NCBI GenBank assembly: GCA_965153355.1
Contig: OZ231126.1
Coordinates: 2,108,001-2,172,000 of the forward strand
Source of the DNA: Flaccisagitta enflata
Taxonomy: Eukaryota
Length of the DNA: 64,000 nucleotides
Direction of reading: 5' to 3'
Part shown: positions 33,401 to 39,400 of the stretch, piece by piece
Position numbering within the stretch: position 1 is the stretch's first letter
How the letters are laid out: each line of letters begins with the position of its first letter
Program-made: the position numbers and the translations under genes
The notes under the pieces: model-generated
Told to the model about the DNA's origin: nothing
The model's input: only the letters and a program-made list of their open reading frames with translations
The model's database searches: none

Positions 33401-36400
33401 CGCGCTGTTGTCGGCTGCTAAGAACGGCACCAGCCAGGGACAGGACTTACAGGACACCACTCAAACCACTCTCGCTCAGCTTGCCAGTGAGGAGAGGGAA
33501 TAATTTTGTTTTTTTTTCTGTTTCATTTAACAATGTCATTTCCAGCTGTTTTCTCCAGTTAAATCAGTATGCCCCAAAAACTAGTGTCAAGAAGATCCTC
33601 CTTTAGGGCGAGCCAGATTCGAGATCAGGGCCCTGGGTGGTATGTCATCCAAGAGGATGAGTCATCTACGGAATCGGAATCCGCCTCAGTCCATGAAGCC
33701 ATCCGCGAAGGGAATTGCCTCTTACGACGGATGCGTCGTAAGAGGAAGTTACAGGAGGCCAATGCTGACGAGACTAAAATCGACGACGTTGTCCGACAGA
33801 CTTTGTCGGAGATGATCGAAACGATAGGTAAATTTGAATAATAAGTTTTTTATTTTTTTTAATGACGAGGAGTAAAAAATTTGCTAGCGTGAGGCATAAG
33901 AAATAATGATTATATTTGTATATTAAAGCCGAGTGTTCAGCATCGGCATCAGTGGACAGCAGCGATGGCGAAAAGACAGGCGATGATTCCTCCGCGAGTG
34001 ACAGGTCCAATTTTTGGACCATTCATTCCAAACGATTCCGCAGTTGGCTCCGATATGCTCGTGGAGCAACCCTCAATTACGAGCGTTCCTCTTCCACCCC
34101 ATCTCCCGAAATCGGGACGGAACAAGATGTTTCTGATTGATTTTTACTTCCGTCCAAAACTTTCCAGATCATTCCAGTATTTTTTGTTTCTGTCAAATCA
34201 GTATCGATTTATAGAAGAAATTGTTATTTGTGTTTTCCTCCTAAGGAAAGACACAGGGGGTGTAAAGCAAGATGAATTTTAAAAAAATTATGCAATTTTT
34301 GGACGCGTTTTAGCAAATTTTAGTGCACTAAGTTTAAAAATATTCTTTAGGTTTAGCAATTTTTTATTTTTTGAACCAGTTTTAGCGCATTTTTTCTATT
34401 AGCATGTTTTGCATATAAGCGCATCTTTATTTTTTTGCATGTGTTCAGTTTTACCACAGTGAGTTACTCAGTTTTACCGTTTTTCTTGTATAAGCCAGTT
34501 TAATGTAAATTTTAGTTTTAGTGTGTTTTTAGTTAAAGCCATTTTAGCTTTAACGCGTTCTTTAATTGTACCCTGTTGTAGTATTCCAGTTTTAGCCTAA
34601 TTTTAAGTTTTAGCCTATTTTAGCTTAAAATGTTTTAAATCGTGCTAAAATTTGCTTAATCGCGGTAAAATGTGCTCAAATTTGCTGAAATACATGTAGG
34701 TTTCCACCCCCTGTAGACAAGGCTATTTCTGTTTCGCCCAACATTATGGTTATGTTTGTCCCCAAAACTTTTTTTACTGTTTTGTGAGGCGGTCCAATAT
34801 TATAGTGTTTGGTATAGCTGTAGTGCGCGAAAGCTGGCCTGTGATATTTTTTCGGTATTTGTCCCGCGTTGCGTTTTTATATCTCCAGCGTTATTTCCGG
34901 CGTTGTTTCCGGCGTTGTTTCCGGTGTTCTGTATTACAGTAGAAAATAAAAAAAAATGTGGCCGTTGTGCATTTTTTTTTTGCGAATACTAGTTTCTCGC
35001 GTTTATATTGTTACCAAATCTACTTATCGACGGGTATAATGATTATATTTCTTTAAAAGCGTTAAGATTGAAACAGTTACTCGTCGACGGCTATAAAAAT
35101 TATATTTCTTAAAAAGCGTTGAGATTGAAACAGTAAACTGATGTTTGACGGTAGCCAAAATCCGGATCAGTGCCCCGGCTGGTATATTTTGGACGAAACT
35201 GAACCGTCATCAACGGAGTCTGAATCCGCCTCAATCAATGTCGTCATCCGCCAAGGTTCTTCCCTCTTACGACGGATTCGTCGTAAGAGGAAGACACAGG
35301 AGGCCAATGCTGATGAGACTAAAATCGCCGACGTTGTCCGACAAATTGTGTCGGAGATCGTCGAGCTCATTGGTAAGGCTTAATCATAAAAATAGTATTT
35401 TCATTTTTATTAACAAGGATTAAGTAATTTGCTAGCGTGATAAGATGCATAATGATTATATTTCTGTATTTAAGCCGAGTCTTCAGCATCAACATCTTCA
35501 GTGGAAAGCAGCACCGATGAGGACAGGACAGGCGATGATTCCTCCGCGAGTGACGGCTCAGTTTTTTGGTCTTTAAAATCCAAAAGATTCCGCAGTTGGC
35601 TCCGGTACGCTGGCGAACCAACGCCCAATTCCGACCATTCCTCTTCCACCCCATCTGCCCAAATCGGGATGGGACAAGTCGTTTCTGATTGATTTTTTTT
35701 GTCCGTCCAAAGTTTTCCCGATCATTTTGTCGACGAAGTTGTTAATTTATTTGTCCCGCTAAACAAAGACATGGCTGTTTCTGTTTCCCCCTAAATTATT
35801 GTTATGTTCGCCGACAAAATTTTCTTTCCTTTTTTGTTACACGCTTGAATATTAATCAACTTCAAGCCATTGTGATCAGTTACTTACTAGATAGTTTTGG
35901 GTATAGATTTAGTGCGCCCAAGCGGCCCTGTGATATGTTTGTGATATTTTTCCGGCGTTCCGTTATTATATCTCGAGCGTTTTTTCCGGCGTTATTTGCG
36001 ACGTTCCATTTTTCTCAACAGCAATGTAGCTTCAGGTACTGATTAACCGCGTTTATATTGTTATAAAATATCATGGTCGAGAGTTAAAATAATTATATTT
36101 CGTTAAAAGCATAAAGAATAAAAAAAAAAGGAATGTTTAAACAAGCATTGTTAGTATTCGCTTTTTCGTAAAGGACATTGTGGCCGCGGTCATCATCAAT
36201 TGGATATAATTTCTGTTCATGTTGTCTAGATTGATGAAACAAATTTCTTTTTGTTTGAACACTCACTGATCACCCAAATTAGACTGGGCATGGCTGTGTT
36301 ATGGACCAGAGCAGAAATAGCAAAATTCGAGCTGGAGTTTCGCTGTGTCATCTGTTGGTCGATGCCCAAAGACCCTCACATTTGCTGTCATTGTGTGCAG

Positions 36401-39400
36401 CATTTTTGTTACGCGTGTATCTCGACTTGCTACATGATGTACGACACGGAATCCTGCCCACACTGCAGGTATTATGGTTACCTATGTTGGTGTTCTTATA
36501 TGAAGTGATTCGAGCCTGTTGTTGTATTATTTCTATAACTGTATTATTCTTTTTAAAATTGTTTTAATCCACAAATACCCGCTGCACTGTTCGCTTATTT
36601 ACTTCTCCTACCCAGGAGGGAGATGCCTCTCGACGAGTACGTTCGCGTGTCGTTACTAAACGTCCTCATTGATAGATACAAACGAGTGACACCAGCCTGC
36701 GATATCCATCCGGTAACGGCGCTGTCGATCTACTGTCGAGACTGTAAAAAAGAAGGATGCCGCCACTGCTGGATGTAAGTCTATTTATTTAAAATTGTTG
36801 ACGTGTGAAAACTTTCAGATGGTTGTCATTGCCGTATGTGTGTCATTTTAGTTAATTACACTTGCTATATTTCATCGTTTTGTAATGGATATTTCGTCAC
36901 GTTGTACCTACAGCGACGATCACATTGGACATTTGGTGGTTCCACTGTCGTTTGGTAGTTCCACTATCGTTGAGAAAACACATCGTTGTCCGCCAACATG
37001 CCCATCAACGCCTTCATCGCCATTAGCGCCGTCTTCGCCACCAGCGGCTTCATCCTCATCACCACCATCACCGCCAGCACCGCCATCAACGCCATCAACG
37101 CCATCAGCGGCAGCAGCGCCATCGCCGTCATCAGGACCATCGCCGGAATGTGGCAATGTGGCAATAGTGTAGTGCATATCCTGTTTTGTTTTCTAGTATT
37201 TTTTCTAGTTTGTTTTGTAGTTTAGTTTCTAGTTTGGTTTCTAGTTGACATCGAACATTCTTTAAAAACGAAAGATGTCAGCCAACGAGTCCGAGTTGCT
37301 GCCGTCCGACTTGCTGCTCGTTAACACGTCGCAACCAGAAGACGCCCTCATTGTTGACCTCCTGAAACGCCAATATAGAAAGGACTGGACCCTCATGCCT
37401 GTGGCTGAACGCGATCGTCTCTTGGAGGTTCATCGCTGCCCCATTTGCCACTGCGACCCCATAATGGCACAAATGTGTCCCGCATGCGACCGTTACATAT
37501 GTGATATATGTCTAAGAAGCGCTTACGAGGTGGATGGCGATTCTTGCCCGCATTGCAGGTGATCTCATGAGGTTGTTGACTATCATAACCATAAAAGTAT
37601 TTCCAAAGGGAAAAAAAATGACGAACGAAAGTCGTTGCTGTTCATATGTGTTCATGTTAAATTTTACTTCGCGCCGGAAATGTATATTAACGCCCGTCCA
37701 TGGGGGAGCGAAATAAAGTGTTTATAATTTCCATTGCAGGATACCCATTGATCTCGAGAATTTTGACGAAGTCTCCGAGACTCTCACGCCATGGCTGAAG
37801 TCTTTACGTGCAGCGAAGGCAGTGTTCGGTTGCCCACGCCATCCGCACGAAAGGATCGCTTGCGTCTTTTGTAAAGACTGTTCGGAGTCATCGTGCGACA
37901 TTTGCTGGAGGTGAGTAAACCCTCAATCACTCTTAAAAAAGTCAAGCAATGGTCGAGGCAATTATATTTGTTAGATCCCCGGCCATCATGTTAGGCGTGA
38001 ATAAAATCCTAGTAAGGCTAATTATAATAGTTAGATCTTACGAGGTGGGGGAATGGTTAAACAATTAAATGTTTCAATAGCTATTTTGTTTGTGAATGAA
38101 GTCTTCAATTTAATTCACAGAGACGTTCACCGCCGCCACGATGTCGTTCCGGTGGAGCTCGCAAACAATGACGACGACCATCAGGAACCAGAGAGATAAC
38201 GCGTTTGTCCAGGCGGTGACAGTGATTTTAAAGATCACACGTCACACATGTTATTGAGGACTGTTTTTGGATTTTGAGTTTAGCGTAGCCGTTTGTTTAA
38301 TTCGAATAATTTTCAACTTGAACTGTTAAACATTTCGCCTTCTCTCGGTTGGCGGGACGCCGCGTTGACCATTCCGTTTCGACAAAAGAGGTCAGTGAAG
38401 CCGGCGTTTTTCATCAGTAGCCCTCAGCGTTCCCGCGACATCTTGCATCTTGCGTTTTCCGTTTCAAGACATTTGTCATGCTCGTTGTTTGCCTTATTAC
38501 TAGTTTTAAATCTTCGCCGCAACATTGTGATTTGTTCTCGTTGACATTCGTTCATATGGTTTAGTTTTGTTAAGCAGTTCACCATTTCACCATGACTGCG
38601 TTATGGACGCGATCAAGAATGGAAGAATTCGAGAAGGAATACCGCTGCCTCATATGCCTTCTTATGCCAACAAACCCTTACCTGTGCAACGTGTGCATCC
38701 ACCATTACTGTTTTGATTGTATCTCGACGGCGTATGAAGATTACGACATGCATTCCTGTCCACATTGCAGGTTTTTTATGTTTTCGTGAATTTGAAATGA
38801 ACTCAAGGGCTGTTGCTATATTAGTTGTATAACTGTATTGTATTGGTACAATCTTCACTAATTAAATTTCCGGGCCAGGACGGAGATGTCTCTGGACGAT
38901 TACATTCGCGCTGCATTCCTCAGAGTCATCATTGACATATACGAAGCAGCCACACCCGCCTGCGATGTCCATGAAGAAAAGGCGCTCTCAATCTTTTGCC
39001 GCGACTGTGAAAATGAAGGTTGCAACGAGTGCTGGATGTAAGTGCATTTTTTCTTCTGAATTTGGGACGGGTTGCAACTTGTAGTTTTGTAGTGTATGTG
39101 ATTCAATTAATTTTCACTTTGTATATTAAATCGTTTTGTAATGGATATTTCATGTCATTTTCCTTACAGGGATCAACATCTTGAACACAACGTGGTTCCG
39201 CTGTGTGCTGAAGAAGAAACACGTTGTTTTCCTACAACGTTGCCATCAACGCCTTCATCGCCATCGGCGGCATCATCGGCATCTTCTTCCACCCCGCCAT
39301 CCTCACCATCCTCAACATCCTCGCCATCCTCGCCATCCTCGCCATCCTCGCCATCGTCTCAGTCGTCACAGTGATCATTGTGAACGTAGTCAGGGAACGA

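Follow-up and report, generated by a model that had tools for sequence, protein, structure and literature searches.

A 64,000-nucleotide (nt) stretch of Flaccisagitta enflata DNA (GenBank assembly GCA_965153355.1, contig OZ231126.1, positions 2,108,001 to 2,172,000, forward strand; below called the window, in whose numbering all positions are given) contains three intact tandem genes on the plus strand between 36290 and 39374. These genes, g1, g2 and g3, have three exons each and encode 198, 177 and 180 amino acids (aa), respectively, and their products combine a RING finger with a B-box. The explanation which we prefer, with moderate confidence, is that the trio are functional, selected descendants of TRIM-type genes and form the cargo of a 28.4-kb CACTA/CMC-like transposon in a VWA intron of the host. 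According to this proposal, a TRIM-type ubiquitin ligase ancestor with a RING, a B-box and a coiled coil would have given rise to the trio by loss of all sequence past the B-box, and the trio would now be passenger genes near the right end of a transposon lying antisense in a VWA intron of about 32 kb.

Gene capture by DNA transposons and small TRIM derivatives with only a RING and a B-box are already known, each on its own. The unusual point would be the occurrence of intact, selected, intron-bearing RING/B-box ligase genes inside an animal-type CACTA-like element bounded by terminal inverted repeats (TIRs). If the three genes are only passengers, they would show TRIM ligases that have been truncated, duplicated and possibly spread. 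Since g2 is found on 136 public contigs, population data that bear on the question of cargo or passenger already exist.

Structure and domains of the three genes

The gene models were read from the window sequence by joining open reading frames (ORFs) at GT...AG sites, and the spliced frames of all three genes are open from ATG to stop. Exon 1 of g1 (36290..36468) encodes an N-terminal helix and a RING with eight cysteines and ends with CPHC and the AG of an Arg codon. The second exon (36616..36774) contributes a linker and the first six B-box ligands and ends with CW plus 2 nt, and the third (36914..37172) the terminal H-x2-H of the B-box, the residues VVPL, a Ser/Pro-rich tail and the stop. 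The first exon of g2 (37275..37558) encodes a conserved N-terminal extension of about 50 aa ahead of the eight-Cys RING, which makes this N-terminus longer than those of g1 and g3; it is followed by an exon for the linker and the first six B-box ligands (37740..37910) and one for the end of the B-box, a short acidic tail and the stop (38121..38199). In g3, the RING exon (38592..38770) and the exon with the linker and the start of the B-box (38879..39037) have exactly the lengths of their g1 counterparts (179/179 and 159/159 nt), and the last exon (39170..39374) encodes the B-box end, a Ser/Pro-rich tail and the stop.

All six introns are bounded by GT...AG, all six are in phase 2, and they interrupt the same two codon positions in the three genes. 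Intron 1 splits the Arg codon (AG/G) after CPHC, and intron 2 lies directly after CW, within the B-box. The introns of g1 and g3 differ in length (147/108 and 139/132 nt). After the B-box, 74 residues precede the stop in g1, 13 in g2 and 56 in g3, the tails of g1 and g3 being rich in Ser and Pro and that of g2 acidic. With tails this short, and with only 102 nt between g1 and g2 and 392 nt between g2 and g3, there is no room for a coiled coil. A preliminary description of this DNA had proposed three intact three-exon genes with two common phase-2 introns, encoding a RING and a B-box2-type motif only, followed by a short tail without a coiled coil. The spliced models agree with it in all structural points, and the domain order is seen in all three.

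A three-way alignment of the proteins contains 17 invariant Cys/His columns, made up of the eight RING cysteines, the His of CPHC and eight B-box ligands with the spacing C-x2-H-x8/9-C-x2-C-x4-C-x2-C-x4-H-x2-H. Thus, all 16 zinc ligands are invariant in g1, g2 and g3. Over the same span, identity at non-ligand positions is only 17/81 (21%) for g2 against g1 or g3, and 39/84 for g1 against g3. That the zinc ligands of the RING and the B-box2 are kept despite divergence, as first suggested from inspection of the letters, is therefore evident from 16 of 16 ligands at 21% non-ligand identity.

Pfam was run on single exons rather than on spliced proteins. The best RING match, of g3 to zf-C3HC4_2, reached 21.3 bits at E 2.3e-4, where the cut-off is 27 bits, and the single-exon translation of g2 exon 1 matched no RING family at E<=1. 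For zf-B_box, exon 2 alone gave E-values of 7.4e-5, 8.3e-4 and 0.032, and the best score of 23.3 bits stays under the cut-off of 24.1 because intron 2 splits the B-box. Profile searches compensate for this. When all PDB chains were compared with a profile built from the three RING exons, 99 RING-type matches came up at E<=10, headed by TRIM37 (3lrq, E 2.8e-7, 33.6 bits) and followed by RBBP6 (29.4 bits) and RING1B. The B-box profile gave nine PDB matches, eight of them TRIM-family B-box proteins, with TRIM2 as the best (E 0.0048).

The AlphaFold model of the g3 RING exon, based on a 17-sequence alignment, has a predicted local distance difference test score (pLDDT) of 86 and shows a helix at residues 7-17 before the core, two short strands and a helix at 41-51 inside the core. 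Foldseek places this model among RING domains throughout. TRIM37 (3lrq) again stands first (query TM score 0.76, 1.7 A, E 5.7e-3), and the best matches are TRIM37, RING1B/BMI1, RBBP6, UHRF1, TRIM21 and BRCA1/BARD1; none of them reaches E 1e-3 because the domain is short. Clusters that look alike to a protein language model are RING clusters, too. The resemblance of the RING to TRIM37 noted earlier is thus recovered both by sequence profile and by fold, with modest margins. Measured against the features of the TRIM family, the proteins have the eight-ligand N-terminal RING and a B-box after it and lack the coiled coil. The MATH/TRAF domain of the TRIM37 subfamily is absent as well, nothing being encoded beyond the tails in g1, g2 and g3. 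The trio is best named TRIM-derived RING/B-box proteins.

Data on transcription are available at the level of a word index. For 36200-39500, a region with an exon share of about 0.51, two metatranscriptome runs contain shares of 0.34 and 0.27 of the words sampled; these shares of index words, as distinct from mapped reads, give a hint compatible with expression of the trio. In the run index, 11 rows contain at least half of the sampled words of this region, and all are of DNA type, labelled as marine metagenome or 'organism A'.

Some further features of the locus were recorded. A further AG lies 3 nt 3′ of the acceptor used for g1 exon 2 and is a possible alternative acceptor. The 102-nt gap between the g1 stop and the g2 ATG (37173-37274) consists mostly of about five copies of the 12-nt repeat TTTGTTTTCTAG (37185-37246), and the spacing of 102 nt between g1 and g2 raises the question of a shared transcript. 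A block of 22 nt in intron 2 of g1 (36874..36895, plus strand) is identical to one in intron 2 of g3 (39130..39151, plus strand); it ends 18 nt before the 3′ splice site, and its flanking sequence is about 75% identical in the two genes. The block could contain a branch point, act as a signal for splicing or have some other function. A scan of 35900-39700 against Rfam gave one match, with 22 bits against a gathering score of 45, and hence no known RNA family.

The enclosing unit and its host intron

The trio lies within a 28.4-kb unit (12152-40553) bounded by TIRs. The left arm (12152..12259, plus strand) begins at its outer end with CACTC, and the first 69 nt of the right arm (40446..40553, minus strand) are identical to it. 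Over their whole length of 108 nt the arms are 94% complementary, and on each outer side CACTC is the precise limit of the homology. The flanking sequence reads ...TTACA on the left and CAGGT... on the right, which leaves the 2-bp sequence CA on each side. A 37-nt terminus occurs only twice in the 64-kb window, namely in the two TIRs. The g3 stop lies 1.07 kb inside the right arm, so the trio is close to the right end of the unit. Within the window, a TIR-bounded unit therefore encloses both the trio and the transposase-like ORF described below, in line with the earlier characterization of the genes as transposon-borne.

The composition of the unit is distinguished by short motifs. The 8-mer AATTATAT occurs 29 times in the window and 28 times inside the unit, at an AT content of 0.593 inside and 0.599 outside. 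It is the 8-nt core of the 13-mer ATAACAATTATAT, for which 14 matches were found with one mismatch allowed, against 0.23 expected, all of them within 12225-40480; the copies crowd both subterminal regions. The motif (C/A)TAACAATTATAT has 14 sites, only inside the TIR-bounded unit, among them 21350, 25462, 25513, 27444, 32548, 32565 and 35093 on the plus strand and 30675, 30913 and 40217-40468 on the minus strand. At all five internal plus-strand loci (21350, 25462/25513, 27444, 32548/32565 and 35093) an ATG follows 4-105 nt downstream and opens an ORF of 80-926 aa, the first of which is the transposase-like ORF, and the two internal minus-strand copies are without such an ORF. From its position, the motif may be an element-specific promoter or binding site. 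On the basis of sequence, the pattern ties the 28.4 kb into one element with a recurring upstream signal, and it is compatible with the trio being an original part of this element or a later acquisition.

The transposase-like ORF of 926 aa runs on the plus strand from the ATG at 21396 to the stop at 24176, in a frame open from 21354. The protein collection contains 10 homologues, which are 43-99% identical to it. In a ten-member alignment, D154 (in C-D-E-V) and D243 (in G-D-N-L), numbered from 22137, are invariant, and a C-x2-C-H sits 20 residues past D243. The AlphaFold model shows a strand-strand-strand-helix-strand arrangement around the two Asp residues, with D154 on the first of the three strands and D243 just past the fourth strand, after the long helix. 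This is the order expected for an RNase H-like core. Foldseek against the PDB gave 48 matches at E<=1e-3 (best E 9.9e-7); those listed are RAG1, Transib and the amphioxus RAG1-like (BbRAGL) transposases, and the P element transposase follows at E 4.6e-3. Look-alike clusters in the ESM Atlas carry Transposase_21 in 10-41% or Plavaka in 42-99% of their members, or DUF1258, and serve as a lead only. From sequence and model together, the unit would be a CACTA/CMC-like cut-and-paste element, with a provisional family assignment.

Other ORFs and repeats of the unit were also described. Directly upstream of the 926-aa ORF, 20280-21178 holds an inverted, internally deleted fragment of it with about 80% identity (matching 22480-23721), probably the remnant of an older copy. 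A comparison of 21100-21400 with 24100-42000, made to see whether a TIR lies immediately before the 926-aa ORF, gave nothing but AT-rich 11-14-mers. The end of the 926-aa ORF is overlapped by a repeat-rich ORF of 419 aa (24122-25381, plus strand), in which a 90-nt unit coding for an acidic/basic module is repeated 5.8 times; this ORF may specify a second element protein. Two tandem paralogous genes of two ORFs each lie just upstream of the trio (33563-34140 and 35129-35692, plus strand), and the coding sequence of each includes a 28-nt palindrome (33718-33745 and 35263-35290). Pfam assigned no family at the E limits used to the other element ORFs, including the 419-aa ORF and the paralogous pair. 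The left part of the element contains a foldback of near-perfect inverted repeats (13470-15528, arms of 168-215 nt, 98-100% complementary), and at 17502-18734 there are three tandem units of about 380 nt, each with a TAACAATTATA core on the minus strand.

The unit is set in a host gene. A multi-VWA gene on the minus strand spans the window, with VWA repeats that are each split into three exons. Its exons, which are pairwise related, include 47687-48370 (Pfam VWA positions 96-171) and about 44157-44262 on one side of the unit and 11547-11915 (Pfam VWA positions 31-93), 9890-10168 and 316-639 on the other. As VWA exons are present on both sides, the unit is contained in an intron of about 32 kb between approximately 44.16 and 11.9 kb. 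Just outside the right TIR, the same intron also houses a non-LTR (long terminal repeat) retrotransposon, with a LINE-type (long interspersed nuclear element) reverse transcriptase ORF of 562 aa on the minus strand (41713-43401, RVT_1, E 7.6e-35). Every ORF called between 21 and 39 kb is on the plus strand and thus antisense to the VWA gene.

These observations have to be weighed against the view that the trio is an ordinary, lineage-specific host cluster of tandem-duplicated TRIM derivatives with RING and B-box and without a functional tie to the transposase 12 kb upstream. As a variant, the genes would merely lie between copies of a short repeat, or a host segment would have been mobilised once by two solo ends. 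Small TRIMs of this kind confined to few species are on record in the cited passages of Marin 2012 (PMC3503706), the element's 13-mer upstream motif is missing from the trio, and the family is as diverse as a host family, clustering at 50% leaving four representatives of the g1/g3 type and five of the g2 type. A single-copy gene across many samples would account for the exact g2 ORF on 136 contigs. Furthermore, no additional copy of the element came out of contig scans of Joint Genome Institute (JGI) metagenomes: a scan for the transposase core gave 152 pattern matches, none of them confirmed, and a 22-nt piece of the TIR had 0 matches. The sharp ends of the unit, with 69-nt identical termini found nowhere else in the window, speak against this view, as do the confinement of the AATTATAT core to the unit (28/29) and the common orientation of the ORFs between 21 and 39 kb, transposase included, antisense to the enclosing VWA gene. 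On balance, a host cluster appears unlikely.

Ancestry and predicted activity

A HMMER search with the RING-exon profile against 1.84 billion cluster representatives returned 66 proteins at E<=1e-3, 11 of them at E<=1e-10, and relatives were grouped from 23 of the 66, which were inspected. Four of these are exon-1 ORFs of the g1/g3 type (P0011, P0013, P0019 and P0022), with P0011 being 67-68% identical to g1 and g3, and five are exon-1 ORFs of the g2 type (P0012, P0016, P0017, P0020 and P0023). In P0018, P0025 and P0033, RING and B-box are joined in one ORF without a break at the site of intron 1 of the trio; these ORFs end one residue past CW, where the trio has intron 2. Longer proteins form a further group. 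P0024 (258 aa) and P0081 (558 aa), which belong to one cluster, have a B-box and then a long helical region, and P0030 has 340 aa. The spliced proteins g1, g2 and g3 align with P0081 at 35-37% identity over 124-130 residues (E 1e-27 to 4e-21), covering RING, linker and B-box, and P0036 (447 aa) aligns similarly. Pfam finds a full B-box in P0081 (38 bits), P0024, P0036 and others, and no MATH domain in P0081, P0024, P0030 and P0036.

Judged by these alignments, the trio family is clearly TRIM-like. Its closeness to TRIM37 holds for the RING and is unproven for the lineage as a whole. Among solved structures, P0081 matches TRIM3 (E 2.4e-8) slightly ahead of the TRIM37 RING (E 5.4e-7). Of the proposal that a TRIM37-type gene had been captured, the part concerning the RING therefore stands, since TRIM37 is its best match, whereas the nearest full-length relatives have no MATH domain and P0081 prefers TRIM3. 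The passages of Marin 2012 (PMC3503706) on this subfamily present TRIM37 as the one TRIM subfamily spread across eukaryotes and report that TRIM37-like genes with none to two MATH domains have expanded in some lineages.

The g2 type is particularly well represented in public data. The ORF of g2 exon 1 (95 aa) is on record in exactly this form on 136 public contigs, the longest of 15 kb, and a word-index search with it gave three close clusters with 94, 84 and 79% identity, all of 95 aa. In its 90% cluster, 17 of 18 members keep the 95-aa length. In the remaining member, P0111, the stop overlapping the intron 1 donor is replaced by a Trp codon, and its ORF runs on into the intron.

Two residues outside the zinc ligands bear on activity. 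In well-studied RING ligases, contact with the E2 and priming of E2~ubiquitin involve a hydrophobic residue in C-x-[ILV]-C and a basic one behind the final Cys. Both are present as Ile (C-x-I-C) and Arg (CPHC-R) in g1, g2 and g3 and in nine of nine g2-like sequences. Because of this conservation we think that the trio proteins are active RING E3 ligases. They are probably dimeric, since the best fold matches are dimeric RINGs with flanking helices and the g3 model has the helix 7-17. Each protein would then be a small RING E3 whose helix-flanked RING recruits and activates E2~ubiquitin, with the B-box providing self-association or contact to a partner. Specificity could lie in the B-box, in the linker or in the tail, or arise when the protein pairs with a full-length relative, and the loss of the coiled coil and the C-terminal domain would free the proteins from the parental substrate. 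Ligase activity, dimerisation and any benefit to the element are inferred. The proteins might act for the element, with its transposase or host factors of silencing or repair as possible targets, they might be neutral passengers, or they might modulate a full-length relative.

The last of these roles has a sharper form, in which the trio are dominant-negative decoys or modulators that bind a full-length TRIM of the P0081/P0036 type via RING or B-box and block or redirect it. Such a role would suit proteins without a coiled coil and a substrate-binding domain. Full-length relatives with 35-38% identity over RING and B-box are found in the same kind of samples, and the trio maintains both of the divergent types, g1/g3 and g2, next to each other. 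A pure decoy, however, would have no need of the Ile that contacts the E2 or of the Arg behind the final Cys, which are invariant in the trio and its g2-like relatives, and the full-length relatives may come from another organism. We regard decoys as less likely than active ligases from the conserved residues, and as a doubtful explanation overall.

A more far-reaching idea extends the preferred reading, selected cargo of a CACTA/CMC-like transposon, to a giant CACTA-like transposon with its own ubiquitin-ligase module that moves TRIM37-like genes between distant eukaryotes. The module would consist of two divergent TRIM37-derived types, g1/g3 and g2, perhaps as a heterodimeric E3, and would ubiquitinate host silencing, repair or restriction factors or the transposase of the element. 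When the g3 RING exon and g2 exon 1 were modelled together as a complex, the score was 0.00; being without controls, this prediction speaks neither for nor against binding. In the passages at hand, Marin 2012 (PMC3503706) considers a horizontal route for the patchy distribution of TRIM37 and judges it far-fetched. We attach only a small probability to this extension.

Selection, contrary evidence and known systems

In the comparison of g1 with g3, first codon positions are identical in 91/124 cases, second positions in 94/124 and third positions in 71/124 (0.73, 0.76 and 0.57), the third position being the most diverged. By the Nei-Gojobori method (NG86), nonsynonymous divergence (dN) is 0.317 and synonymous divergence (dS) 0.90, which gives a ratio of 0.35. 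The ratio is lowest in the RING (0.14) and the B-box (0.24) and reaches 0.55-0.59 in the N-terminus and the linker. When 5000 sets of substitutions were drawn at random, each with as many changes as separate g1 and g3 (116/372 nt), only 1.0% kept the first 124 codons open, so that intactness is beyond chance. In addition, the eight RING cysteines are invariant in nine g2-like sequences at 94-43% identity to g2 and in 17 close variants. The assumption of purifying selection in the preliminary description agrees with the excess of third-position changes, the preserved exon lengths and the invariant cysteines of the relatives, and the dN/dS it had called for, carried out on g1 and g3, came to 0.35 and was not near 1.

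Several points weigh against the explanation of the trio as selected transposon cargo. With regard to selection, the introns of g1 and g3 align at 75% and 80% identity and the exons at 76-77%, the introns are separated by a distance (0.23-0.30) similar to dN (0.32), and in the RING dS approaches saturation (proportion of synonymous differences 0.73). Intron similarity at the level of the exons and a dN close to the intron distance mean that the constraint is only moderate; the similarity of the introns is due in part to the identical 22-nt block in intron 2. The protein collection consists of called ORFs only, in which broken copies would be under-represented. With regard to the genes themselves, support for expression is limited to 27-34% of the sampled words in two metatranscriptome runs, every inspected relative of the g1/g3 or g2 type either ends at the first splice site or continues through it unspliced, and a word-index search for longer relatives of g3 exon 1 found no spliced full-length form of the trio family. 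With regard to the element, neither the 926-aa ORF nor three of its homologues matched a Pfam transposase family, including Transposase_21. The model of this ORF is mediocre (pLDDT 63.9, predicted TM score 0.45), with a TM score to RAG1 of only 0.21-0.30. A 2-bp flanking repeat is expected by chance in 1 of 16 cases and was seen in a single copy; of the upstream signal, the trio has only the 8-mer core, 186 nt upstream of g1, in place of the 13-mer. The transposon reading as a whole rests on this single copy, mobility and a linkage of trio and transposase elsewhere being unproven.

Some of the same observations would fit decaying captured fragments, Pack-type cargo which is at most transcribed as part of the element and has no protein function. 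Transposons often carry truncated pieces of host genes, as described in the excerpts of PMC8277862 and PMC13317346, the trio is truncated relative to full-length TRIMs, and its introns are as conserved as its exons in g1 and g3. Against this stand three open frames (p about 0.01 for the g1-g3 pair alone), the excess divergence at third positions with a dN/dS of 0.35, ligands invariant at 21% background identity, and the 95-aa ORF, preserved in the 90% cluster of g2 exon 1 by 17 of its 18 members, the exception being one that reads through the stop, which together make mere decay very improbable. A viral or giant-virus insert, an idea raised by the common upstream motif, was set aside, as the scanned ORFs include no viral hallmark gene and spliceosomal introns and transposon-type TIRs further speak against it.

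Among known proteins, TRIM37 shares with the trio the spacing of the eight-Cys RING, the CPHC ending and a single B-box after the RING; it differs by its coiled coil and the MATH/TRAF domain of subfamily A, both of which the trio lacks. In this ranking against solved structures, TRIM37 leads by a small margin (33.6 bits, with 29.4 for the next RING, and a Foldseek E of 5.7e-3). The RING/B-box/coiled-coil proteins P0081, P0024 and P0036, from marine and other metagenomes, are 35-38% identical to the trio over RING, linker and B-box, and proteins of the P0081/P0036 type have the same B-box end, H-x2-H-x-VVPL. They continue into a helical region and further sequence, where the trio stops.

Among known transposons, the animal CACTA/CMC elements come closest to the unit. 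SmTRC1 is described in the cited passages of PMC1636069 as a CACTA-related element in which TIRs and 2-bp flanking repeats go together with internal tandem repeats and a Transposase_21 ORF. Like the unit, such elements have TIRs starting with CACT, internal tandem repeats, a large size and additional ORFs, and the 2-bp CA on both flanks of the unit would be a candidate target-site duplication; they differ in that Pfam Transposase_21 is unmatched in the ORF of the unit, and in the RING/B-box genes which form its cargo. Accessory genes are known from related elements, the fungal Plavaka/KDZ-type relatives carrying a TET/JBP gene according to the part of PMC12730594 cited here, and gene capture by TIR transposons is known from plants and animals (excerpts of PMC8277862 and PMC13317346). 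Among the best literature matches listed there is no case of RING/B-box ligase genes as transposon cargo, which is not proof that none exists.

The remaining comparison is with viruses. ICP0 is a RING E3 ligase encoded by a herpesvirus, and the RING of an equine herpesvirus (1chc) is among the matches of the RING profile (E 7.7e-4). As in ligases of the ICP0 type, a mobile agent would here encode a small RING ligase, though without any viral context. If the trio serves the element, it would be the transposon counterpart of viral RING ligases such as ICP0.

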